Origin: a virus
Lineage: Duplodnaviria > Caudoviricetes
IMG/VR virus record: IMGVR_UViG_3300030332_000525
Coordinates: 1-27,811 of that record
Reading direction: 5' to 3' (one strand)
DNA length: 27,811 nt
Part shown: positions 1,833 to 27,193 of the stretch, in pieces
How positions within the stretch are numbered: position 1 is the stretch's first letter
Layout: every line of letters begins with the position of its first letter
Notes under the pieces: model-generated
Told to the model about the DNA's origin: nothing
What the model saw: the letters and a program-made list of their open reading frames with translations, nothing else
Database searches by the model: none
Translations under genes and position numbers: made by a program

Positions 1833-4223
1833 ATGAAGATAAACTATAATACTAATAGTCCTTTTCCGAGTCAAGTAGTAAGTGACGCAGAGAAATCAAG
1901 CTGGGAATATGGAGAACAAGTAGCTAGAGCTATTGAATACGAGTGGTTTAGTCAAGGTCGTACTAATGGTAATAGATATTTAACTACTTGGAATAACTAT
2001 AATAGATTAAGATTATATGCAAGAGGCGAACAACCGGTACAAAAATATAAAGATGAATTATCTATTAATGGAGACTTATCTTATCTTAATTTAGATTGGA
2101 AACCTGTACCTATAATTTCTAAATTTGTAGATATATTAGCTAATGGGATTTCTGCTAAAGATTATGATATAAATGCTTATGCACAAGATCCTGAATCTTT
2201 AAATAAAAGAACTAATTATGCTAAAATGTTAGCAGAGGATATATTTGCTAAAGAAACAATGGGACAAATTGCAGAAATGCTTGGATCTGATTTATCACGT
2301 ACTAGTATATCACAAAAGGAATTACCTACTACTAAAGAAGAACTAGAATTACATATGCAATTAAGCTATAAACAGGCTATAGAAGTTGCGGAAGAAGAGG
2401 CTATAAATCAAATATTAGATCAAAATAGATTTGATTTAATTAAACGTAGAATAAATTATGATTTAGTAACCTGTGGAATTGCTGCATGTAAAACTAATTT
2501 TAATTTAGCTAATGGAATTACGATAGATTATGTTGATCCAGCTTACATGGTATATTCTTATACAGAAGATCCAAATTTTGAAGATATATATTATGTAGGT
2601 GAAGTAAAGGGAATAACTATCCCTGAACTTAAAAAACAATTTCCTAATATTCCTAATGAAGAATTAGAGAAAATTCAACAAAATAAAGGAAATAGAAACT
2701 ATATTTATGGGTGGGGAGCTTTTGATGAAAATACAGTTCAAGTATTATATTTTGAATATAAAACTTATACTGATCAAGTATTTAAAATAAAAGAAACCCC
2801 TTATGGATTACAAAAAGCATTAGAAAAACCTGATACATTTAATCCTCCTGAAAATGATAATTTTGAAAGAGTAAGTAGAAGTATAGAAGTATTATATAAA
2901 GGGGTTAAGGTTTTAGGTACTAATACCATGTTGCAATGGGAAATGGCTGAAAATATGACTCGACCCTTTGCTGATACTACTAAAGTAGAAATGAATTATG
3001 CTATTTGTGCACCAAGAATATATAAAGGGCGTATTGATTCTATTGTAAGTAGAATTACAGGATTTGCTGATATGATTCAATTAACACATTTAAAACTTCA
3101 ACAAGTTATAGCTAGAATAGTACCTGATGGTGTATTTTTAGATATGGATGGACTTGCAGAAGTGGATCTAGGGAATGGTACTAATTATAATCCAGCTGAA
3201 GCATTGAATATGTATTTCCAAACAGGATCGGTTGTAGGTAGATCTTTAACCCAAGATGGTGAATTAAATAGAGGAAAAATACCAGTACAAGAATTAGCAA
3301 CTAACTCAGGCCAAGCAAAAATTCAAAGTTTAATTCAAACATATAATTATTATTTACAAATGATAAGAGATGTGACCGGATTAAATGAGGCTAGAGACGG
3401 TAGTTTGCCTGATAGAGATACTTTAGTTGGTCTTCAAAAAATTGCAGCACAACAATCTAATATAGCTACTAAACATATTAATAATGCTAGTTTATGGTTA
3501 ACTTTAAGGGCTTGTGAAAATGTTGCCAAAAAAATTGGTGATATGTTAGAATATCCATTAACTGCTAATGCTTTAAAAGAAAGTATTTCTACTTTTGATA
3601 CAGAAACATTAAGAGAAATTGATCATTTATCTTTACACGATTTTGGTATATTTTTAGATTTAGAACCTGATGAAGAAGAAAAAGCTCAATTAGAACAAAA
3701 TATTCAAGTAGCTTTATCAGGTGGAGGTATTGATTTAGAAGATGCAATAGATATTAGACAAATACGTAATTTAAAATTGGCTAATCAATTATTAAAACAA
3801 AAACGTAAGCAAAAAGAGCAACGTGATCAACAAATCCAAGAACGTCAAATTCAACTAACAGCACAAGCAAATGCGGATGCAGCTCAAAAAGCAGCTGAAG
3901 TAGAATTACAGAAACAACAGGCATTAGCTGAAAAAGAATTACAAATTGAACAAGGTAAATCTCAATTTGAAATTCAACGAATGCAAACCGAAGCAGAAAT
4001 TAAACGTCAATTAATGGCTGAAGAATTTAATTATCAATTGCAATTAGAGCAATTGAAAATGCAAGCAGAACAAGGAAAAGAAAAAGAAATAGAAAATAGA
4101 AAAGACAAAAGAGTTAAAATCCAAGGAACACAACAAAGTGAAATGATAGATCAAAGAAACAATGATTTATTGCCTATAGATTTTGAAAACAAAGGCCAAG
4201 AAGGAATGTTTCCTATGGCTTAA
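1833..4223 (+). CDS. Portal protein
   Basis: 796 aa, abutting terL (TAA-ATG) and upstream of scaffold and capsid genes. Long Q/E/K-rich C-terminal coiled coil like the P22-type portal barrel. Confidence 0.88.
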   Translation: MKINYNTNSPFPSQVVSDAEKSSWEYGEQVARAIEYEWFSQGRTNGNRYLTTWNNYNRLRLYARGEQPVQKYKDELSINGDLSYLNLDWKPVPIISKFVDILANGISAKDYDINAYAQDPESLNKRTNYAKMLAEDIFAKETMGQIAEMLGSDLSRTSISQKELPTTKEELELHMQLSYKQAIEVAEEEAINQILDQNRFDLIKRRINYDLVTCGIAACKTNFNLANGITIDYVDPAYMVYSYTEDPNFEDIYYVGEVKGITIPELKKQFPNIPNEELEKIQQNKGNRNYIYGWGAFDENTVQVLYFEYKTYTDQVFKIKETPYGLQKALEKPDTFNPPENDNFERVSRSIEVLYKGVKVLGTNTMLQWEMAENMTRPFADTTKVEMNYAICAPRIYKGRIDSIVSRITGFADMIQLTHLKLQQVIARIVPDGVFLDMDGLAEVDLGNGTNYNPAEALNMYFQTGSVVGRSLTQDGELNRGKIPVQELATNSGQAKIQSLIQTYNYYLQMIRDVTGLNEARDGSLPDRDTLVGLQKIAAQQSNIATKHINNASLWLTLRACENVAKKIGDMLEYPLTANALKESISTFDTETLREIDHLSLHDFGIFLDLEPDEEEKAQLEQNIQVALSGGGIDLEDAIDIRQIRNLKLANQLLKQKRKQKEQRDQQIQERQIQLTAQANADAAQKAAEVELQKQQALAEKELQIEQGKSQFEIQRMQTEAEIKRQLMAEEFNYQLQLEQLKMQAEQGKEKEIENRKDKRVKIQGTQQSEMIDQRNNDLLPIDFENKGQEGMFPMA

Positions 4224-4226
4224 TTA

Positions 4227-4256
4227 TTAATTATTTAATTATATTTTATTATGGCA
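4227..4256 (+). promoter_or_regulatory. Repeated start-proximal motif TTAAyTATTTAATTATATTwTATTATGGCA, copy 1 (scaffold gene)
   Basis: 28/30 identical to 6996-7025, with the same spacing to the ATG. Confidence 0.6.
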
Positions 4257-5492
4257 GAACAAAAAGCGGCCGTAGAGGTCAAACAAGAAGGCGACTTTAA
4301 AATAAAGTCAAAGCCTAAAAAAATGAAAGACTTAGGAAGTAAGTCAAAAAATGAAGTAGTAAAAGTAGATTTAACAAAACCCGTAACAGATGAGGTAAAA
4401 TCAAATGTTATTAAGGTAGATTTAACAAAACCAAAAACAGATGCCGTTCAAGAGCAAAAAACAGAGACAGTGGATGTGGATAAACGAGCCGGAGATGGCG
4501 AGAAAGTGGACACAGGAACACGGGTCAGCGATACAAAGGAAGAGCCCGTTGCAGAAGTTGAGGTGCAAACTCCGATCGAAGAAATAATTGAAGAGGTTGA
4601 AGAAACTACTCCAGAAAAAATAGAAAATATTCAAGAGGTAACTAAAGAACCTGTTGTAGAAACACAACAACTACCCCAAAATGTTGATAAACTCGTAAAG
4701 TTTATGGAAGAAACAGGCGGGACAGTAGAAGACTATGTTAAACTCAATAGAGATTATACAAAATTAGATGATAATTCTTTATTACATGAATATTATAAAC
4801 AAACAAAACCTCATTTATCACAAGATGAAATTAACTTTTTAATTGAAGATAAATTTCTAGTAGATGAGGATATAGACGAACAAAGAGACATACGTAGAAA
4901 AAAACTAGCTTATAAAGAAGAAGTTGCTTTTGCGAAAAAGGATTTAGAAGGTTTAAAAAATAAGTATTATGCTGATATTAAACAACGTCCCGGAGTAACA
5001 CAAGAACAACAAAAAGCTACAGATTTTTTCAATCGTTATAATAAACAGCAAGAAACTATAAAGCAAAGTCATGAAGCGTTTCAAAAACGGACCAAAGATT
5101 TATTTGATACAGAATTCAAAGGTTTTGATTATTCTGTAGGTGAAAAGAAATTTAGGTATAAAGTTCAAGATCCTTCTAAAATAGCTAAGAGTCAATCTGA
5201 TATTAATAATTTTATTAACAAATTTGTTGATAAAGAAGGAAATATTAATGATACTCCAGGTTATCATAAAGCTTTATATGCTGCTATGAATGCTGACAAA
5301 TTAGCAAGTCATTTTTATGAACAAGGGAAGGCTGACGGTGTTAAAAACATGGTTAAGCAATCCAAGAACCCAGCTCAAGATGCGCCAAGGCAAGTTGCCG
5401 GAGGGGACGTGTTTATAGATGGATTAAAAGTGAGAGCTATTAGTGGAACAGATTCATCAAAATTGAAAATTAAACGAACATTTAACAATTAA
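4251..5492 (+). CDS. Putative capsid scaffolding/assembly protein
   Basis: Lies between portal and major capsid genes. Acidic low-complexity N-terminal half, helical/coiled-coil C-terminal half, basic C-terminal tip (KLKIKR). Confidence 0.7.
   Translation: MAEQKAAVEVKQEGDFKIKSKPKKMKDLGSKSKNEVVKVDLTKPVTDEVKSNVIKVDLTKPKTDAVQEQKTETVDVDKRAGDGEKVDTGTRVSDTKEEPVAEVEVQTPIEEIIEEVEETTPEKIENIQEVTKEPVVETQQLPQNVDKLVKFMEETGGTVEDYVKLNRDYTKLDDNSLLHEYYKQTKPHLSQDEINFLIEDKFLVDEDIDEQRDIRRKKLAYKEEVAFAKKDLEGLKNKYYADIKQRPGVTQEQQKATDFFNRYNKQQETIKQSHEAFQKRTKDLFDTEFKGFDYSVGEKKFRYKVQDPSKIAKSQSDINNFINKFVDKEGNINDTPGYHKALYAAMNADKLASHFYEQGKADGVKNMVKQSKNPAQDAPRQVAGGDVFIDGLKVRAISGTDSSKLKIKRTFNN
4350..4451 (+). repeat. Tandem 51-nt (17-aa) duplication NEVVKVDLTKPVTDEVK / SNVIKVDLTKPKTDAVQ
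   Basis: Exact 17-mer gtagatttaacaaaacc at 4365 and 4416, each followed 4 nt later by acagatg. Confidence 0.85.
4441..4587 (+). CDS. Nested 48-aa basic protein in the +1 frame of the scaffold gene: MPFKSKKQRQWMWINEPEMARKWTQEHGSAIQRKSPLQKLRCKLRSKK
   Basis: ATG4441 to TAA4587. GC is 71/140 (51%) over 4441-4580 versus 38/140 (27%) before and 47/140 (34%) after. A-rich upstream context. The peptide resembles the MPFKSxKQRxxxWxNxPExAxKW pattern I recall from small uncharacterised phage proteins (recollection, not a search result). Confidence 0.78.
   Translation: MPFKSKKQRQWMWINEPEMARKWTQEHGSAIQRKSPLQKLRCKLRSKK
5317..5418 (+). CDS. Weak candidate nested 33-aa ORF in the +1 frame of the scaffold 3' end (MNKGRLTVLKTWLSNPRTQLKMRQGKLPEGTCL)
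   Basis: GC is 49/100 (5321-5420) versus 28/100 just upstream. About 14/33 G/C-ending host-frame codons versus 2/33 before. ORF limits match the anomaly, but RNA structure could also explain it. Confidence 0.3.
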   Translation: MNKGRLTVLKTWLSNPRTQLKMRQGKLPEGTCL

Positions 5493-5503
5493 AATTTAAA
5501 ATT

Positions 5504-6949
5504 ATGCCTTTAAATCCCCAATTTGGAACGATAATCCCTAGTCAGGTACAACAAATACTTGCTACGAATTATTTAAATTTTGCCGGCGGTGGTGTTACTT
5601 TCGCTCAGCAATATTTACCAGAAATCTACGAACAAGAGGTTGAAAGATACGGTAATAGAACTTTATCTGGATTCTTAAGAATGGTAGGTGCGGAGCTTCC
5701 AATGACAAGTGACCAAGTAATCTGGTCAGAACAAAATAGATTACATATTGCTTATGATAACTGTACGTTTGCAGCTCCTGGTGTAGGTGCGGCTAACGCT
5801 ATTACTATACCTGCTGGTGTAACTAACGTTATATCTCCAAGATCTACTATCGTTGTGATGGATGATTTCGGTGCAGAAGTAAAGTGTTTAGTTGTTTCAT
5901 CTAACATTGGACCTGGTGCGGTTACTATAAATGTTGATCCTTATACAGCGGCTACTATTGCTGCTGCAGGTTTAGTAGGAAACGTAAAAATATTTGTTTA
6001 CGGTTCTGAATATCTGAAAGGATCTACAACACCTAACGCTGCTGCTGGTCCCGTCTTAGCTGCCGGAACTACTTATGTAAGCGTTGATCCAAATTTCACA
6101 CAATTCCAAAACAATCCTATCATTGTAAGAAGCAAATACACAGTATCTGGTTCTGATATGGCTCAAATAGGTTGGGTTGAAGTTGCTACGGAAGATGGAA
6201 CTTCTGGATACCTTTGGTATCTAAAAGCTGAGTCTGAAACAAGACTTAGATTTGAAGACTATTTAGAAATGATGTGTGTTGAAGCTGAGCTTGTTGCTGC
6301 TGCTTCTCCAATCGTTGTTGGAACTGAAGCAAATGGTTCTGAAGGACTTTTTGCTGCTATTCAAAATAGAGGTAACGTAATGGTTGGCTTTAGTGCTGCT
6401 ACTGGTCTTGGTGACTTTGATGATATTCTTAGAAACTTAGATACTCAGGGGGCTATTGAAGAAAACATGCTATTCCTAGATAGACAAACTGCTTTGGATT
6501 TTGACGATATGCTAGCTGCTATCTCTTCAGGTGCACAAGGTGGTACTGCTTATGGACTATTTGAAAACTCAGAAGAAATGGCTTTAAACTTAGGTTTTAG
6601 CGGTTTCAGAAGAGGTTCTTATGACTTTTATAAAACAGACTGGAAATATCTTAACGACGCTTCAACGCGTGGTGCGATGACTGGCCCTGCTTCTATAGAA
6701 GGCGTATTAGTTCCTGCTGGTACAACTACTGTCTATGATCAAATTCTTGGTACTAACATTAGAAGACCTTTCTTACATGTAAGATATAGAGCTTCTGAAG
6801 GTGATGACCGAAGAATGAAATCATGGTTAACAGGTTCTGCAGGTGGAGCTTATACTAGTGATCTTGATGCAATGGAAGTTAACTTCCTTTCAGAAAGATG
6901 CTTAGTAACTCAAGCTGCTAACAACTTTGTATTATTCCAAGGAGTATAA
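5504..6949 (+). CDS. Major capsid protein (HK97 fold inferred)
   Basis: 481 aa after the scaffold gene. High-expression codon bias (many AAC/TTC/ATC/GGT/GCT). Followed by the clearest terminator in the window. Segments such as WSEQNRLH and GSEGLFAAIQNRGN fit HK97-type E-loop and post-spine-helix positions. Confidence 0.88.
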   Translation: MPLNPQFGTIIPSQVQQILATNYLNFAGGGVTFAQQYLPEIYEQEVERYGNRTLSGFLRMVGAELPMTSDQVIWSEQNRLHIAYDNCTFAAPGVGAANAITIPAGVTNVISPRSTIVVMDDFGAEVKCLVVSSNIGPGAVTINVDPYTAATIAAAGLVGNVKIFVYGSEYLKGSTTPNAAAGPVLAAGTTYVSVDPNFTQFQNNPIIVRSKYTVSGSDMAQIGWVEVATEDGTSGYLWYLKAESETRLRFEDYLEMMCVEAELVAAASPIVVGTEANGSEGLFAAIQNRGNVMVGFSAATGLGDFDDILRNLDTQGAIEENMLFLDRQTALDFDDMLAAISSGAQGGTAYGLFENSEEMALNLGFSGFRRGSYDFYKTDWKYLNDASTRGAMTGPASIEGVLVPAGTTTVYDQILGTNIRRPFLHVRYRASEGDDRRMKSWLTGSAGGAYTSDLDAMEVNFLSERCLVTQAANNFVLFQGV

Positions 6950-18913: not shown

Positions 18914-21900
18914 ATGGTTGACGAAAACAATATCTGGGATGAATTACCTGGGACTGATGTAATAACACAAGAAGAAGATGAAGAAAATCAGAAACAAGAA
19001 GAAATAGAGACTGCGGAAGTAGAAGAAGTCCCTATTATTGAAGACGTAGAAACAGATGCAGATGTTTTACTTAATGAAGAATGGAATAATTTAGATGGAG
19101 AGGAAACAAAAATAATAGAAGATAGTAGTCCTATAGATATCCCAATAACGGGTTCTAATATAAATATAAATGGTGTATCGGTTGCAGTAGATCTAGAACA
19201 AGAAAAGAAAGGAAAAGAAGAATGGAATACTCAAAATGAAGAAATAGCAACACAAATAAATGAAATAAAGGATAATCCTGTTTATACTCCCGATGGAACA
19301 GTAGATATAAAAGCCACACAAGAAGCTATTGATAATGTCCCACAAAATCAAGGATTAATTCTAAAACAAGAAGTTGAAGAAGATGAAGAATCTGTATTAG
19401 ACTTAAGAAATAAAGTGAAGTCTTCTAAATTGCGGCTTGAAGAAGAAGTTATTGATGATGATACTTCTTTTAATTGTCAAGAAGCCCTTGTAAAGTTTTA
19501 TGCCGGAGAGTTAGAAGCTAAAGATATATCTGATTGTGTAGACGTAAAGCCTGAAATTAAAGACGCTGTAATGGATAATTTTATTCCTAAAGATACTGAA
19601 GGGAAAAATTTATATAAAACATTAGAGGAGTATCTTTTAACTTTAACCATAGATAATCCTGAGACGGGAGAAATTGATGAAAGTATTAATCCCGAAACAG
19701 GGATGACATATATAGATGAAGCAATTTTCAAAGCAATAAAGACAAGTTATTATAATGATGCTGTAGTAAAACAAACTATTAAAAATGAAGAAAATGATTT
19801 ACTTACATCTCCAAATACAATTTCTAAAGCAAATGAATTACAATCTTTATATTTTTCTTTTCCTGATGTAGAAGAAAAAATAAATAAATTAACTACAGGC
19901 TTAGAGAGTATAAATGCTCAACTTGTTATAGACGAAGATAATATTGCTCGATTAGCAGACAAAGATGCCCAAAAAGCCTGGGAAAAAACAGTCAAAGAAA
20001 GACAAGAGTTATGTAAAACAGTAGGTATATTTTGTGAAGCAGAGTGGTATAAACCTCCTACTTATGATCTAATTAATCAATACAATAGAAAAATAAAAGA
20101 AATTCAAAATATAGCAAAAAGTAGAAATGTCAAAATTACACAACTTAATGCATTATTAGAAGGTAAAGAGGGAGATTATCCTGAAGATTTACAAAATAGG
20201 GTTGAACAATATCAAACAGCTTTTACTAATTATATTAATGAAGAATATTCAAAACGATTAAGTAGTAATAAAACTCTTACTACTAAATATAAAGAATATG
20301 GAATTGTAGCAGATAAACTGCTCCCAGATATCATTAAACAACATGGTAGACTTCATCGTCCTGAATTAAGGGGAATTGATATAAGAAGTGATTATTGGGA
20401 GAATCAAAAAGAAATGAGTGCATTAGAAGTAGCTAAGCAAATGTTTACTAATATAAAACATAATTTCATACTCTCTACCCAAGGAAAGGATAAAGAAAAA
20501 ATAAATATTTTATCAGAAATTCCACAATTTGAAAAAGGTAAGTTAAATATTGAAGAAAATAAAATTTTATTTAGAGAAACAACTAATAAATTCCTAGCGG
20601 AAACCAATATCGCTCTTAGAGATTTTTTTGGTGATCGAGCTCGCTTTTCTAAAGATCGTGATAATATAAATAATTTAATAGAAACAACTCCGGTAACTTT
20701 AGACATGACAATTGGTGAAGCCGCTAAACATAGTAGTATCATTAAAGGAATGTTCAGATATTATAACCAAGGAATGTCCTCTTTTGGTCAAGAATTTAAT
20801 GAAAATATGACCGTTAAAGAATTTAGAGATAGTTTTAATATAGGAATTGAAGATATTAAAGCTTTAGAATTAGATGATTATGAAAATTGGGTTAATGCTT
20901 ATGAAGAAATGTCTTTTTTAAAGGATCTAAAAATAGATGAAGATTTTTTAAGCATAGAAGGTTTCATGCAACATTTAGGAATGGCTTATAACCAAGCATT
21001 GCATATGGTCCCATCATATGCTGGTCAAGCAATGATGATGGCAGGTACTGGAATGAGTTTTATTCCACTACCTCAAACACAAGTTGCAAGTAAAGGCTTA
21101 ATGATTGGTGGTGGAGCGCTTATGGCTGCAGGTGCGAGTATACAAGGGGCTATGACATATAGTAATGTATTTATGGAAGGTGTTAGAATACAACTTACTG
21201 AAGAATTAGGCCAACAACCTACTGCACAACAATTTTTTGAAGCCTTACAAGATCCTAAATATGGGGATCAATTAGCTGCTGCTGGGGCTGGGCTTTCAGT
21301 AATGGGTAGTGAATTTTTCTCTGATCTTATATTTTCTCGAGTTGGTGGTAAAGCAGGTACTTGGATGTTTACAAATTCTACTACAAGGAAAATGATGCAA
21401 AATTCTCTCCAGAAATATATAATAAATTTTGGAACTAGCGCTGGTGTATATGGATTAAATATGTATAAAGAATGGGGAGTAGAAGGTTTTCAAGAATGGT
21501 TAGAACAAGGGTTTACACATATGGCTATAGGACAAGATAATCCTTTTACCTCTAATATAGATTGGGATCAAATATCAGAAGCCGCTGAGGGTGGATGGGA
21601 TTTAAGTAAATTATTTGGAATAAGCACGGCAGGTGGCGCATTATTAGGGCAAAGTGGTATAAGTGATATAATGATAGGTAGTTATAATAGTAGAGCAAAA
21701 GCCATAGTGTCAAAATTACGCTTAGATCCAGGCAGCAAAACTGCTTCCACAGTTGAAAAATTATTGCAAAACTTAAAAAATGATATTAATAATGATGGAA
21801 GTTTAAATAAAAAACAAAAAAATGATCAAATTTTATCTTTATCAAATATAAGGTCTGCAGCATTATCTGTTTCTCCTGAATTTAGATCGCAAACTAGATT

Positions 21901-24900
21901 AAAACTTATTAATTTAATTATTGAACAAAAAAATCTAGAAAAAAATATAAAACGTGTTAATAATAAACAAGCAAGTGTATTAGAAATTGAAAGAAAAAAT
22001 GAGGTTGATGCACAAATACAAGAAATTATATTAGCTGAACATGCATATCAGCAAGCGCTGCAAGGAACTACTCAAGCTATGGGTATATTTGGTGTGGGTG
22101 CAGAAGATCCAATAATTAAAGGATCTGAAGGAAAGCAGCCTTTAGAAGATTTGGATGCTTTAGTTACTAAATGGCAACAAGGAGCTGGAGATGTCGATGT
22201 CCAAAATGACATCCTGCCGCAATTTGAAGCAGCTGTAATAAGTTCATTAAAAAGATGGGGAGTAACTAATGGAAGAAACATAACTTTTGATTTAAAAAAC
22301 CCTGAAGTAATAAAAGAAATAAAGCAAGAGGTTGGCCAAGAGCTCTGGAGTTTTATAGAAAACTTTGATAAAACTAAAAGTGCTGCTACAACATATACAG
22401 CTAATATAGCAAAAAGAATAGGGCCTCGATTAGTTGATATTTTAGCTAGACCAAAAAGTCAAAAGGAAATGACCGCGCAGGAAATGGAAAATATTGCTGC
22501 ACAAGAAACTGAAGAAGTTACAGGAGAAGAATTCCAAGAAACTGGATTACCATCGTCTGTAGCAGTAGTAGAAAAACAATTAGCCGATAGTAGGCCAAAT
22601 ATTTTAGCTAAAACTAAAGAAGATATAAAATCATTTATTGCTAGTAGTTTAGGTAAAGTAAAAGAAATTGGTAAGAAAGGTAAAACGGCAATAATAAAAC
22701 TTACCCCCACTGCTCTTGCACAATCTTTAGTAGAGGCTGCTGGATCTACTAAAACTAGACAAATATTAGCAAAAGATATAGGTGGATATAATACTAATAA
22801 ATATAAAAAGTTTGTAAAAGAGGCTATAGAGGGAGGACTTATAAGTACTATTCCTTTTGCCACTATGAAGAAAAGATTGGGTACTGTTCCAGGGTTTAAT
22901 ATAGAAAAAATAGGTAGAGAAACTTTAGGAGCTGGCACGGGTATTTATAAACTTTCAGGTTTACAGGAGCAAGCTTTAATAGATTTTTATACTAGCGATA
23001 AAGTAAAACCAGAAACACGTCAAGGGAGATATAAGTCTTTTGTAGGAATGTTAGCAGAAAGTATGGCTATTGAGCAGTTCCAAGAAATGAAAACTGATAA
23101 AGATTTCATGAAAGATTTATCTATTTCATTAGAAGAAGCCGGAATTGAAATGACAGCTGAGGAATTTATTGACCAAGTAGAAAAGAAATTAGATAAAAGA
23201 ACTAAAGAAAAAAGATCTTTAGATATTATAGAAAGCAAATTAGATAAAGGAATAACTCAATTAGATAAATATATAAAAGATAACCAGGGGATTTTATATA
23301 GTGGAGTGCCTATAGCCGCGGCGGCGGCCCAAGCAGTACGTGGGGGTTTTAAAATATTAAAGAGTACTTATCAAAAAACTAAATCTATAGCTAAAGCAAT
23401 CAAAGCTGCTATTAATTATTTACAAAAGAAATTTAAAAATTTATCTCGAACTAAAATAAAACAAATTTGGGAAACAGAAGTAAATGAACAATCTTTAAAA
23501 GATAATACAATAGATATAGATGCTTTAATTGATGCCTATATAGACCAAGGAATAAAGAATAAAGGTATTGCATATGAAAACGTTGTATATGATGCAGCTA
23601 ATAAAGTAAAAAATACTATATTTAAAGTTATTGGAAAACAAACAGAAAAAGGTGGGGCTGCTGATTTCATGTCCAAATTATCAGGATTTGATTTTAATGT
23701 AGAAATTAAAATGGAAACATCTCGATTTGGCAGTGTTCTTATGAAAATATTACCAAATGGTAATATAAAATTTGCGACAGATTATGATTTTAACCCTGAA
23801 TTAGAAAAAGCACTAAAAAAGAATAAGAAAAATATACAGGCCTTTAGAAACAGGGCCGAACAGCTAGGTCAAAATATGGAAGATTTTGATAATGGCATTA
23901 TTGATAAAAAAATATGGGAACAATTAAAAAAAGAAGGGTATTTAAAAAATGCTAGAACAATAGTTACATTAGATGCAAAAGAGGTTGTAGGTGGTTATTA
24001 TTTAGCTCAAAAATATCCTTCTGAATATATGAATATAAAAGGAAAAGGACTTGTAGCTCTTGGGAATGATCCATTAGGATTAGGAGTCCCTACTTTGGAC
24101 GGAACAGTAGATATTGAAGTTGGAATAAATACTTCAGGAACTATATATAAAAAAGTAAAAGGGAAAAAACCTCTAGATACCGGAAATAGATCATTTAGTC
24201 TTAGGGCAAAACCATTTAGATTAAGCAATGTTAGTAAATCTAATTATAATATAGACACAACTGCGGGAATAAATAAACTTTTAAACAGTAAACAAGTACA
24301 ATTATTAAAAGATAAGCAAAAAGCAGCAGCTAAAGGGCCTGGTAATAATATTTCTCAACCTTCTAATTCACCAAATCAAAGAAAAGAAACTTTAGAAAAT
24401 TCTTTAGATACTAAAGTAAATGCGCAAAAAGTAAATAAAAAGAAAAAAGGCATTAGTGTATTTGATATGGATGATACTTTAGCGAAAACTAAAGAACAGG
24501 TTTTAGTTTCAATGCCTGATGGTACATTAAGAAGATTAACCCCAGCACAATTTGCGGAACAAGCAGACATATTAACTGAGCAGGGAGCGGAGTTTGATTT
24601 TTCTCAGTTTGAAGATGTTAAAGGAGCCAAAAAAGGACCATTGGCAGATCTTGCTTTACGTAGACAAGCTAAGTTTGGGAGTGGTGATATTTATGTTCTT
24701 ACGGCTAGACCACAAGCATCAGCACAAAATATAAAATTATTTTTAGACAGTATAGGTTTAAATATACCAATAGAAAATATAATAGGATTAGAAAATGGTA
24801 CTCCTCAGGCAAAAGCCCAATGGGTATTATCTAAAACTCAAGAAGGCTATAATGACTTTTATTTTGCTGATGATTCAAAAATGAATGTAAAAGCAGTTAA

Positions 24901-27193
24901 ACAAATTTTAGATCAAGTAGATGTTAAATCTAAAGTGCAACAAGCTATAGCTGATAAAGCTACAAATCTTGATAAAGAGTTTAACGAGATGTTAGAAGAA
25001 ACTGAAGGGGTGAAATCTCAGGCAGAATATTCTAGAATTAGGGCCCAATTAGAAGGAAAGAAAAAAGATAAAGGATTTTTTAAATGGTTAGGTAAACAAT
25101 TAACTATTACACCTTCAGCTGAAGATTTCTTAGGATTAATGTATGACCTAATAGGCAGCGGCAGGCAAGGCAATAGACATGCCAAATGGATTAGAGATAA
25201 CTTAATTAACCCTTTTAATAAAGCTGAACAACAAATTTTATCTGCTAAAACTAGTGTAGCTAATGATTTTGCTGCACTTAAAAACGCCTTTCCATCTTTA
25301 AAATCAACTATTAAGGGAAACCCTTTAATGGATCAAATTGGTGTTGGTCCATATACTAAATCTCACGCGATGAGGGTATATATGTGGAACAAACAAGGTA
25401 TGGAAATTCCTGGTCTTTCTAAACGTGATCAAAATGCTTTAGTTAAAGCTGTAGAAAATGATATGGAGCTTATGTCATTTGCAGATAATGTTATTTTAAT
25501 ACAAAAAGATAAGCAATACCCAGCCCCAACTAATAATTGGGCCGGAGGAACAATTGATAGCGACATAATGTCTAGTATAGATAAAACTTTTAGACGCCAA
25601 GTTATGACCGAATTTGATGAAAATACTAAAATTATATTCTCAGAGAAGAACTTGTTTAAGTTAGAAGCCACTTTTGGTAAGAAATGGGTTGAAGCTTTAA
25701 AAGATAGTTTACGTAGAATGAAGTCCGGTAGTAATAGACCAGTATATCAAGGCGGTGGTTCTAGAATTGTAAATGAATTATTAGATTGGTTAAATGGTTC
25801 TGTTGGAGCTATTATGTTCGTAAATATGCGGTCTGGTTTGCTTCAAATCATATCTAATATAAATTTTATAAACTGGGGTGATAATAATATCTATGCGGCC
25901 GCGAAAGCTTTTGCTAGTGCAGAATATTGGCCTACAGTATTAAAATTAATGAATTCTGATTATTTAGTTAATAGACGTGATGGATTAAAAATAAATGTTA
26001 ATGAAGCTGAATTAGCGAATGCCGCTAAAGATGGTGGAATGAAAGGGGCTATTAATTATTTATTAGATAAAGGATTTATTATAACTAGAATAATGGATAG
26101 CTTAGCTATTGCAACCGGTGGTGCAACTTTTTATATAAACAGAAGAGATGCATTATTAAAAAGACAAAATCCAGAAACAGGTAAAAAATATACTAAAGCA
26201 GAAGCAGAGACACAAGCATTTGATGATTTTTATGCTATTGCAGAAGAAACGCAACAGTCTAGTAATCCTAGTAAAATATCACAACAACAGGCTAGTTTAG
26301 CTGGTAGAGTCATATTGTCATTCCAAAATGTGACAATGCAATATAACAGGAAAGTTAAAAAAGCTATTAGGAATTTATATAATAGAAGAAAAAATCCTGG
26401 TATGACACAAAGAGAAAGTGATATGAGTAATATTTCTCAAATTGTATACTATACTACAGTGCAAAATATCATATTCCATAGTTTACAACAAACATTGTTT
26501 GCACTATTATTTGATGATGAAACAGAAGATGAAGAGAAAAATAGATTAGCTAATATTGCAAATGGTATGGCTGATTCATTATTATTTGGACTTGGATTTG
26601 GAGGTGCTGCAATCTCTACAATTAAAAATGTGCTATTACAAATAAGATACGAGAGTCAACAGAAAAGTCCTGAATATGAAGAAGCTGTATGGGCATTATT
26701 TGACTTCTCCCCAGTATTAGACTCTAAAGTTCGTAAATGGCGCACTGGTCTTAAAACATTTAGTTGGAATAGAGAAGAAATTGCTAATCGGGGGTGGAGC
26801 TTAGATAACCCAGCTTATTTAGCTGTAGCACAAATAGTTTCGGCCACTCTTAACCTTCCTATAGACAGAGTATTACGTAAGACTATGAATTTAAGGGCAG
26901 CAATGGATGAAGAAACTAGAACTTGGCAAAGAATTGCTTTAATATTAGGATGGGATACATGGAGCTTGGGTCTTCCCTATTGGGGATTACAAAGCACTAT
27001 TGCAAAAGAAGAAAAAGAAAAAGCAAAAATAAAAGCAGATTACAAAAGTGATATTAGGAAAATAAAAGCAATGGGTTATAAAAAAGTTATGAGTCGAGTT
27101 TTAAAAGATTATGATCCTAAAGATATTATAGAATTACAATCTCCTGCAGGAACTGTAGTTTATTATGCTAAAATTAAAAAGAAAAAGAAATGA
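18914..27193 (+). CDS. Giant (2759 aa) multidomain protein, probable large ejection/internal virion protein, with sigma70 region-2-like, PD-(D/E)XK-like and HAD domains
   Basis: Acidic N-terminus; G/A-rich hydrophobic helices (~21000-21680); sigma-like segment (~22140-22450); nuclease motif (E1555, D1584, E1597-x-K1599); HAD motifs I-IV (D1851, T1930, K1967, D1986/D1987); hydrophobic helical C-terminal region. Occupies the T7 gp16 position. Confidence 0.8.
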   Translation: MVDENNIWDELPGTDVITQEEDEENQKQEEIETAEVEEVPIIEDVETDADVLLNEEWNNLDGEETKIIEDSSPIDIPITGSNININGVSVAVDLEQEKKGKEEWNTQNEEIATQINEIKDNPVYTPDGTVDIKATQEAIDNVPQNQGLILKQEVEEDEESVLDLRNKVKSSKLRLEEEVIDDDTSFNCQEALVKFYAGELEAKDISDCVDVKPEIKDAVMDNFIPKDTEGKNLYKTLEEYLLTLTIDNPETGEIDESINPETGMTYIDEAIFKAIKTSYYNDAVVKQTIKNEENDLLTSPNTISKANELQSLYFSFPDVEEKINKLTTGLESINAQLVIDEDNIARLADKDAQKAWEKTVKERQELCKTVGIFCEAEWYKPPTYDLINQYNRKIKEIQNIAKSRNVKITQLNALLEGKEGDYPEDLQNRVEQYQTAFTNYINEEYSKRLSSNKTLTTKYKEYGIVADKLLPDIIKQHGRLHRPELRGIDIRSDYWENQKEMSALEVAKQMFTNIKHNFILSTQGKDKEKINILSEIPQFEKGKLNIEENKILFRETTNKFLAETNIALRDFFGDRARFSKDRDNINNLIETTPVTLDMTIGEAAKHSSIIKGMFRYYNQGMSSFGQEFNENMTVKEFRDSFNIGIEDIKALELDDYENWVNAYEEMSFLKDLKIDEDFLSIEGFMQHLGMAYNQALHMVPSYAGQAMMMAGTGMSFIPLPQTQVASKGLMIGGGALMAAGASIQGAMTYSNVFMEGVRIQLTEELGQQPTAQQFFEALQDPKYGDQLAAAGAGLSVMGSEFFSDLIFSRVGGKAGTWMFTNSTTRKMMQNSLQKYIINFGTSAGVYGLNMYKEWGVEGFQEWLEQGFTHMAIGQDNPFTSNIDWDQISEAAEGGWDLSKLFGISTAGGALLGQSGISDIMIGSYNSRAKAIVSKLRLDPGSKTASTVEKLLQNLKNDINNDGSLNKKQKNDQILSLSNIRSAALSVSPEFRSQTRLKLINLIIEQKNLEKNIKRVNNKQASVLEIERKNEVDAQIQEIILAEHAYQQALQGTTQAMGIFGVGAEDPIIKGSEGKQPLEDLDALVTKWQQGAGDVDVQNDILPQFEAAVISSLKRWGVTNGRNITFDLKNPEVIKEIKQEVGQELWSFIENFDKTKSAATTYTANIAKRIGPRLVDILARPKSQKEMTAQEMENIAAQETEEVTGEEFQETGLPSSVAVVEKQLADSRPNILAKTKEDIKSFIASSLGKVKEIGKKGKTAIIKLTPTALAQSLVEAAGSTKTRQILAKDIGGYNTNKYKKFVKEAIEGGLISTIPFATMKKRLGTVPGFNIEKIGRETLGAGTGIYKLSGLQEQALIDFYTSDKVKPETRQGRYKSFVGMLAESMAIEQFQEMKTDKDFMKDLSISLEEAGIEMTAEEFIDQVEKKLDKRTKEKRSLDIIESKLDKGITQLDKYIKDNQGILYSGVPIAAAAAQAVRGGFKILKSTYQKTKSIAKAIKAAINYLQKKFKNLSRTKIKQIWETEVNEQSLKDNTIDIDALIDAYIDQGIKNKGIAYENVVYDAANKVKNTIFKVIGKQTEKGGAADFMSKLSGFDFNVEIKMETSRFGSVLMKILPNGNIKFATDYDFNPELEKALKKNKKNIQAFRNRAEQLGQNMEDFDNGIIDKKIWEQLKKEGYLKNARTIVTLDAKEVVGGYYLAQKYPSEYMNIKGKGLVALGNDPLGLGVPTLDGTVDIEVGINTSGTIYKKVKGKKPLDTGNRSFSLRAKPFRLSNVSKSNYNIDTTAGINKLLNSKQVQLLKDKQKAAAKGPGNNISQPSNSPNQRKETLENSLDTKVNAQKVNKKKKGISVFDMDDTLAKTKEQVLVSMPDGTLRRLTPAQFAEQADILTEQGAEFDFSQFEDVKGAKKGPLADLALRRQAKFGSGDIYVLTARPQASAQNIKLFLDSIGLNIPIENIIGLENGTPQAKAQWVLSKTQEGYNDFYFADDSKMNVKAVKQILDQVDVKSKVQQAIADKATNLDKEFNEMLEETEGVKSQAEYSRIRAQLEGKKKDKGFFKWLGKQLTITPSAEDFLGLMYDLIGSGRQGNRHAKWIRDNLINPFNKAEQQILSAKTSVANDFAALKNAFPSLKSTIKGNPLMDQIGVGPYTKSHAMRVYMWNKQGMEIPGLSKRDQNALVKAVENDMELMSFADNVILIQKDKQYPAPTNNWAGGTIDSDIMSSIDKTFRRQVMTEFDENTKIIFSEKNLFKLEATFGKKWVEALKDSLRRMKSGSNRPVYQGGGSRIVNELLDWLNGSVGAIMFVNMRSGLLQIISNINFINWGDNNIYAAAKAFASAEYWPTVLKLMNSDYLVNRRDGLKINVNEAELANAAKDGGMKGAINYLLDKGFIITRIMDSLAIATGGATFYINRRDALLKRQNPETGKKYTKAEAETQAFDDFYAIAEETQQSSNPSKISQQQASLAGRVILSFQNVTMQYNRKVKKAIRNLYNRRKNPGMTQRESDMSNISQIVYYTTVQNIIFHSLQQTLFALLFDDETEDEEKNRLANIANGMADSLLFGLGFGGAAISTIKNVLLQIRYESQQKSPEYEEAVWALFDFSPVLDSKVRKWRTGLKTFSWNREEIANRGWSLDNPAYLAVAQIVSATLNLPIDRVLRKTMNLRAAMDEETRTWQRIALILGWDTWSLGLPYWGLQSTIAKEEKEKAKIKADYKSDIRKIKAMGYKKVMSRVLKDYDPKDIIELQSPAGTVVYYAKIKKKKK

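Follow-up and report, generated by a model that had tools for sequence, protein, structure and literature searches.

Does the short reading frame that lies inside a 413-codon phage gene, one base downstream of that gene's own frame, encode a protein, and if it does, which of the two frames was there before the other? The window (the whole stretch of DNA that we analysed) is a 27.8-kb, 43%-complete virus record, from a marine phage, in which the genes follow one another in the order terminase, portal, 413-aa gene, likely capsid gene and more virion genes (Table 1). The initial annotation had noticed a complete ORF within the uninterrupted frame of the 413-aa gene, with a jump in GC at its limits, a strongly basic product with three Trp and, in the host frame, an acidic linker, and had proposed a hidden gene overprinted inside a scaffold gene. 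As a description this holds: the ORF has a GC of 0.49, rising to 0.52 in its first part (4441-4530), against 0.27 before it (4300-4440), 0.35 after it (4588-4730) and 0.32 in the whole window, and the peptide, with its three Trp, has a pI of 11.1 and 14 Lys and Arg against 3 Asp and Glu.

Table 1. The nested gene, its host gene and their neighbours (positions in the window)
Feature	Position	Strand	Remarks
Nested gene in the +1 frame of the scaffold gene, MPF-type small basic protein	4441..4587	+	48 aa, ATG start
Conserved N-terminal module of about 30 residues	4441..4530	+	alignment A1 (49 sequences), AlphaFold2 model
Variable Lys/Arg-rich tail and stop	4531..4587	+	nested members are of 36-54 aa
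A-rich, weakly structured stretch upstream of the nested ATG, likely internal initiation site	4427..4440	+	
Host gene, likely head scaffold, 413 aa	4251..5492	+	between portal and capsid genes
Acidic, poorly conserved N-terminal linker of the host protein, contains the slot	4251..4667	+	pI 4.7
Conserved C-terminal part of the host protein	4668..5492	+	control region and tree input
Portal gene (context)	1833..4223	+	phrog_6547, E 3e-143
Likely major capsid gene (context)	5504..6949	+	phrog_13704 'virion structural protein', E 6.5e-87; capsid role suggested by position

The 413-aa gene is likely to encode the head scaffold, judging from its position and the acidic composition of its product; none of the family profiles that it matched gives this name. 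Its cultured relatives belong to the Flavobacterium Elemo phages, Maribacter phage Panino and Cellulophaga phi38:1, with 24-38% identity over the C-terminal part among the matches listed, and the homologues in Elemo and phi38:1 carry the annotation "structural protein". The N-terminal linker measures 82-156 aa in the scaffold homologues. Near the end of the gene there is a second +1 ATG ORF (5317-5418, 33 aa, GC 0.49), which most of the closest relatives (L001-L012) also have and which coincides with a second GC peak; it may be the shadow of a conserved motif of the host protein.

Constraint on the two reading frames

The length of the ORF is poor evidence, since Lys-rich +1 ORFs are common in such linkers: an ATG ORF of 39-54 codons also occurs in 17 of 60 linkers without a member of the nested family. 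In random synonymous recodings of the host segment the ATG and the 48 open codons survived in 183 cases out of 20,000. Scored with a profile made from database proteins only, the real peptide reaches 72.6 bits and the best of 3,000 synonymous recodings 28.6 bits.

Among 40 disjoint close pairs (197 substitutions), changes that alter the host protein and are silent in the nested frame number 109.5 for 44.8 expected (2.4-fold), and those that are silent in the host frame and alter the nested product 25.5 for 57.6 expected (0.44-fold); the latter is the suppression of host-synonymous variation among scaffold homologues that the initial annotation had suggested looking for. The conserved scaffold domain, used as a control in 39 of the 40 pairs, gives 83.5 for 187.2 expected (0.45-fold) in the class that changes the host only and 411.5 for 198.7 expected (2.07-fold) in the host-silent class. 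A Cys-bearing subfamily of the nested gene (30 pairs) has 85.5 host-changing substitutions for 30.8 expected and 19.5 nested-changing ones for 50.6 expected, and a second nested family, described below, has the same pattern as the MPF type in 40 pairs. Over the first 30 codons, in 18 representatives, mean amino-acid identity is 0.58 in the nested frame and 0.45 in the host frame, and the least variable position is the third codon position of the host; the data for the tail are few (8 substitutions). Sister scaffolds differ in that they have lost or replaced the segment.

As measured by these substitutions, the nested frame is shown to be under stronger purifying selection than the host frame. 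Together with the loss of the match upon recoding and of the segment in sister scaffolds, this argues that the host protein tolerates the segment and that the small gene constrains it, which bears out the earlier suggestion that the scaffold sequence at this place is the shadow of the small gene. Comparative sequence data thus confirm the ORF as a conserved gene, and not a scaffold shadow; that it is a real gene seems to us close to certain.

A widespread family of small basic proteins

The peptide had been likened to small free-standing phage proteins, and an HMM search had been proposed. With HMMER the family comes to 684 clusters at E<=0.001, and free-standing homologues do exist: a peptide-led scan gives 71 nested and 9 free-standing members among its best 80 loci, and there are annotated isolates besides, such as the Streptomyces phage FlowerPower, a cultured phage whose gene 48 adjoins the holin. 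Unannotated copies occur in P-RSP2, S-CBS2 and C75C1. The family ranges over actinophages, cyanophages and many marine phages, and the module keeps 50-75% identity between phages of different host groups with dissimilar head proteins. Short queries are easily missed: the window peptide gave nothing at E 0.01 by tblastn against cultured phages, where its relatives as queries gave matches, and a word-index protein search returned nothing, the query being too short. No description of the MPF family or of its nesting was found in the open-licence literature; one phage paper that bears the motif string is a chance match.

In alignment A1, M1, P2, Q8 and P17 are invariant and F3, S5, A20 and W23 are present in at least 90% of the sequences. 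The AlphaFold2 model (mean pLDDT 79) has a helix at 6-15, a kink at Pro17, a helix at 17-27 and a loose tail. Fold searches with this model gave no PDB match at E<=0.001 (best Z 2.5), and its best matches in a viral structure library are unnamed or uncharacterised phage proteins; PDB sequence searches gave nothing or chance repeats, and no Pfam family matched the window peptide at E<=0.1. The nearest named ESM Atlas cluster is DUF3008 (PF11450; score 0.83, on 15% of members), which is a lead only. In one nested subfamily (L413-L478) two conserved Cys flank the turn, suggesting a disulfide or a metal site.

The window peptide matches PHROG 1375, of unknown function, with E 0.0013, and other nested members match it with E down to 2.3e-6. 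This group includes Patience gp10 (E 1e-31), Barnyard gp9 and Emalyn gp2, and has in common with the MPF branch a F-x-S-K-x-Q...W core, a basic tail and a position in the head module; its actinophage members are free-standing and have an N-terminal extension, whereas in the MPF branch the module stands at the start and can be nested or fused to long proteins. A profile-profile comparison of Patience gp10 with A1 (probability 92.8, E 3.9e-7), in which the gp10 module does not lie at residue 1, makes it likely on sequence grounds that the MPF family is a distant branch of PHROG 1375, even though the match of the window peptide itself is weak. We do not count phAPEC6 gp161c as a relative: its N-terminal motif looks similar, and its link to the MPF profiles is not significant, with an E of 17 (in the available part of PMC7247149 it is present in the virion mass-spectrometry table).

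Of the 150 best matches in the family, 144 have the module at their very start, residue 1, and the proteins measure 42-640 aa, 62 of them exceeding 150 aa. The module also stands at the N-terminus of proteins of 350-670 aa in what looks like an ejection module; a Pfam scan of 85 longer module-bearing proteins gave no informative domain, with matches only in one spurious repeat protein. The gene contexts of free-standing and fused copies were picked by hand (main set, 17 loci). Free copies lie among small basic genes between the portal and the GroES, scaffold or capsid genes (L298, L307, L312, L322, L123, L124, MW574966), between terminase and portal (L118, L132) or after the portal (L100); in one Streptomyces group the gene is beside the holin rather than the head genes. 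Two contigs of 235-242 kb (L105, L128) hold free copies within arrays of small proteins with an N-terminal ITxxQLRxII-type motif, one of which bears the MPF module; these N-termini are possibly head-targeting leaders.

Slots, host genes and relative age

Two scans of the slot used loci picked by scaffold sequence alone, the best 80 of 568 and the best 80 of 574 confirmed relatives. The first found an MPF-type ORF in 20/80 loci, a different conserved ORF in 27/80 and neither in 33/80; the second found the MPF type in 52/80, none by pattern in 27/80 (these include an MSF variant and several loci whose ORFs look degenerate) and a fusion in 1/80. Conservation of the +1 ATG, another point raised by the initial annotation, is supported. 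At this slot the gene is dispensable, a recognisable nested member being missing from the 33 and the 27 homologues just mentioned. When all linkers are pooled and de-duplicated (n=267, a set biased by the peptide-led scans), 115 have the MPF type, 91 the second family, 1 both and 60 none. In Panino a genome-wide search matched no family member, and the same search also missed the Elemo copy. In linkers L351, L362, L387 and L394 the slot is taken by a +1 ORF of 42-43 codons, which looks like a degenerate occupant or one of a third type. On contig L327 (6001-7041) the MPF module is in frame with the C-part of the scaffold and the N-part is terminated by a stop; this fusion and the broken scaffold of L446, each a single contig, may be assembly errors.

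The second nested family, DUF7230-like, uses the same +1 slot (L024:3884-4003 and 91 other distinct linkers), and its best 80 loci are all nested. Its match to DUF7230 (PF23876) does not reach the curated cut-off (best E 0.0016; 19 bits, the cut-off being 27), and ArfA is not among the Pfam matches listed for its peptides; it is a slot-mate of the window peptide, which belongs to the other family; no copy of it was found in the window's incomplete genome record. At L231:2872-3123 (approximately) both nested genes stand in tandem in one 156-aa linker. On a scaffold tree of 97 rows the MPF label needs 8 changes, of which well-supported branches make at least 6 unavoidable, and the hypothesis that all MPF-bearing scaffolds form one clade is rejected (p-AU 1.6e-52); the pattern fits repeated loss, replacement or recombination as the sequences record it, and the tree does not fix the order of events.

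The gene is also found in hosts of another kind. In MW202828, whose own scaffold linker is short and empty, it lies in the +1 frame of a 3,859-aa protein (L409:1489-1620, minus strand), and 68 of 68 Elemo records match this peptide beneath the annotated giant structural protein; in NC_062741 (Elemo) the +1 frame was confirmed for an unannotated copy (53458-53586; L412:9001-9129) at residue 1221 of a giant protein of 3,694 residues. Among 80 further loci, the gene lies inside a scaffold in 66, inside an ORF of 1,500-2,750 aa in 9 and inside a broken scaffold in 1, and it is free in 4; the giant hosts, with the nested part masked, form at least three BLAST groups. One of these hosts (L483:1928-7948) has DNA-methyltransferase/ParB-like matches and, in addition to the MPF gene, several more long +1 ORFs (59-97 aa). 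A high-identity segment common to the giant proteins of Elemo and L425 was discarded, its +1 frame not being open. The window's own giant gene has no copy of the nested gene; at 18914-27193 the window encodes a protein of 2,759 aa with a weak polynucleotide-kinase-like match at residues 1836-2025 (phrog_415, E 3.7e-5).

Three histories could account for such a pair of frames. Could the ORF be a mere shadow of a conserved scaffold motif, without translation? Acidic linkers do readily give Lys-rich +1 ORFs, but selection favours the nested frame and the substitution pattern refutes this reading, recoding the host segment destroys the match, homologues stand free without any host frame and sister scaffolds do without the segment, so that we give it next to no credence. 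Could the peptide gene have arisen de novo in the scaffold linker, by classic overprinting, and later have escaped to a free-standing life? Nested members are diverse and scattered over the scaffold tree, and in the majority of known internal overlaps it is the +1 frame that is new, as stated in the available part of a review (PMC8227390); by the distribution criterion in that same part, however, the more widely distributed frame is the ancestral one, and the peptide family reaches from actinophages and cyanophages to many marine phages, whereas the host segment is missing from the outgroup scaffolds and, as a read-through segment, recurs in unrelated giant proteins. A product of overprinting is expected to be narrowly distributed and to have no homologues outside its host; here there are hundreds of clusters and free-standing copies. 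We therefore consider this course quite improbable, and the term "overprinted", if it means that the gene originated within the scaffold, is not supported, the family being far wider than the host segment. Since it is so much more widespread, the small gene is very probably older than the host segment, as far as sequence distribution can tell. The host protein would then read through an older small gene as a disposable linker, and this would be cheap, for Lys-rich codons read one base earlier give Glu and Lys and no stops.

Translation, location and significance

How would the peptide be made? In 28 representatives, compared with 492 other +1 ATGs, the leader of the nested ATG is rich in A (fraction 0.70 vs 0.38; A at -3 in 0.86 vs 0.37) and weakly structured; the window's own start has C at -3. 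The A-rich context is partly due to the Glu and Lys codons of the host, and we have discounted the GCC and xAT host codons found in 28/28 cases, because this class was defined by Met-Pro. No Shine-Dalgarno motif was seen upstream of the nested ATG. Bacteroidota are known to initiate without a Shine-Dalgarno site, and the A-rich leader is consistent with that mode of initiation. Assembled RNA contigs cover parts of the gene, which indicates presence and cannot show translation. A +1 ribosomal frameshift from the scaffold frame, which would yield a fusion of the scaffold N-terminus with a basic tail and no free peptide, might be read into the A-runs upstream of the ATG, the lack of +1 stops for 4-13 codons before it in the nested loci from the peptide-led scan, and the in-frame fusion of L327; however, Met-Pro is retained although a fusion has no need for it, the upstream host sequence is wholly different in scaffold and giant hosts, and the L327 fusion is one locus in 80 whose closest relatives are intact. 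We regard a frameshift as improbable. The nearly fixed N-terminal position of the module favours an own start, which we predict with considerable confidence: ribosomes would initiate independently at the A-rich site on the late mRNA and release a peptide with a free N-terminus.

Where the product goes is less clear. In the available part of a mass-spectrometry report (PMC4324244), Patience gp10 is listed as a virion protein among the small basic proteins of the particle, with counts of 1/1 in particles and, in infected cells, 5/4 at 30 min and 2/2 at 2.5 h, its neighbours gp11 and gp111 reaching 36/30 and 36/33 in particles. According to that part of the report, the detection of gp10 shows translation of a distant family member; as to location its particle counts are weak evidence for, or against, the virion, gp10 being only a distant relative. 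In Patience (genes 10-17, L501:1103-4471) and Barnyard (genes 8-14, L500:4805-6430) the portal is followed by a cluster of small genes for very basic proteins, several with a common N-terminal A-L-x-K-A-Q motif; small basic proteins of the cluster are reported in Patience particles in the same part of that report.

It could be that the gene is real and its product stays unpackaged in the cell, binding for example ribosomes or other host nucleic acid late in infection. The higher counts of gp10 in infected cells (PMC4324244, available part) agree with this, and the strong conservation of the module despite dissimilar head proteins fits a conserved host target as well as DNA. Against it, the free-standing copies cluster in head modules, both kinds of host gene encode likely head-packaged proteins, and the module is fused to likely ejection-module proteins; with gene context, fusion partners and host genes all on this side, we think an intracellular factor, the main rival, less likely and favour a head-packaged, nucleic-acid-binding peptide, a prediction from sequence to which we would give slightly less than even weight. 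The helix-kink-helix module and its basic tail would bind something common to phages of several host phyla, of which packaged DNA or the inner surface of the head is the simplest, and nesting would couple synthesis of the peptide to that of a head-packaged protein. As a whole, then, our explanation is that the acidic linker of a likely scaffold contains, in its +1 frame, a conserved small gene, probably translated from its own ATG on the late mRNA into a basic product that is likely packaged in the head and predicted to bind nucleic acid, and we would put the chances of this explanation at about one half.

The best known cases of this layout are lambda Rz1 in Rz and phiX174 E in D, where a small gene lies wholly inside another on the same strand and in the +1 frame, D being itself a scaffolding protein. 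The initial annotation had drawn this analogy, and it stands for the layout, which the nested MPF gene shares; it falls for lysis. An Rz1-type spanin or an E-type lysis protein was rejected: the peptide is hydrophilic and basic, has no hydrophobic run and no membrane, lipoprotein or lysis features, sits in the head module and matches no such family. In contrast to Rz1 and E, it also has many free-standing homologues, unrelated host genes and a slot in common with a second family. The capsid accessory protein gp4 of Patience and Adjutor, a small protein threaded into the inner capsid surface (PMC11965321, available part), offers an analogy only: gp4 has no sequence likeness to profiles A1-A3, and no gp4-type structure was among the matches listed in fold searches with the peptide model.

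More tentatively, one may suppose that the acidic disordered linkers of head-packaged proteins serve as landing slots for mobile genes that are old and encode small basic proteins. Two or more unrelated families would come and go in the +1 frame of the scaffold, replace one another there or stand in tandem, and one of them would also enter unrelated genes of giant ejection proteins; the MPF module might then be an unrecognised cross-phylum tag for head loading or DNA binding, which brings long cargo proteins into the head as well.

It is usual to regard nested genes as young and as created by overprinting; in the present case an old and widespread gene would dictate the sequence of its host, and it sits in two unrelated host families with a partner that can be swapped. 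A motif common to the scaffolds and giant virion proteins of marine Flavobacteriia-type phages would accordingly be the shadow of another gene, and annotation drops a large family whenever its members are nested. With an unannotated nested copy present in the Elemo phages, which are in culture, translation, location and function are directly testable.
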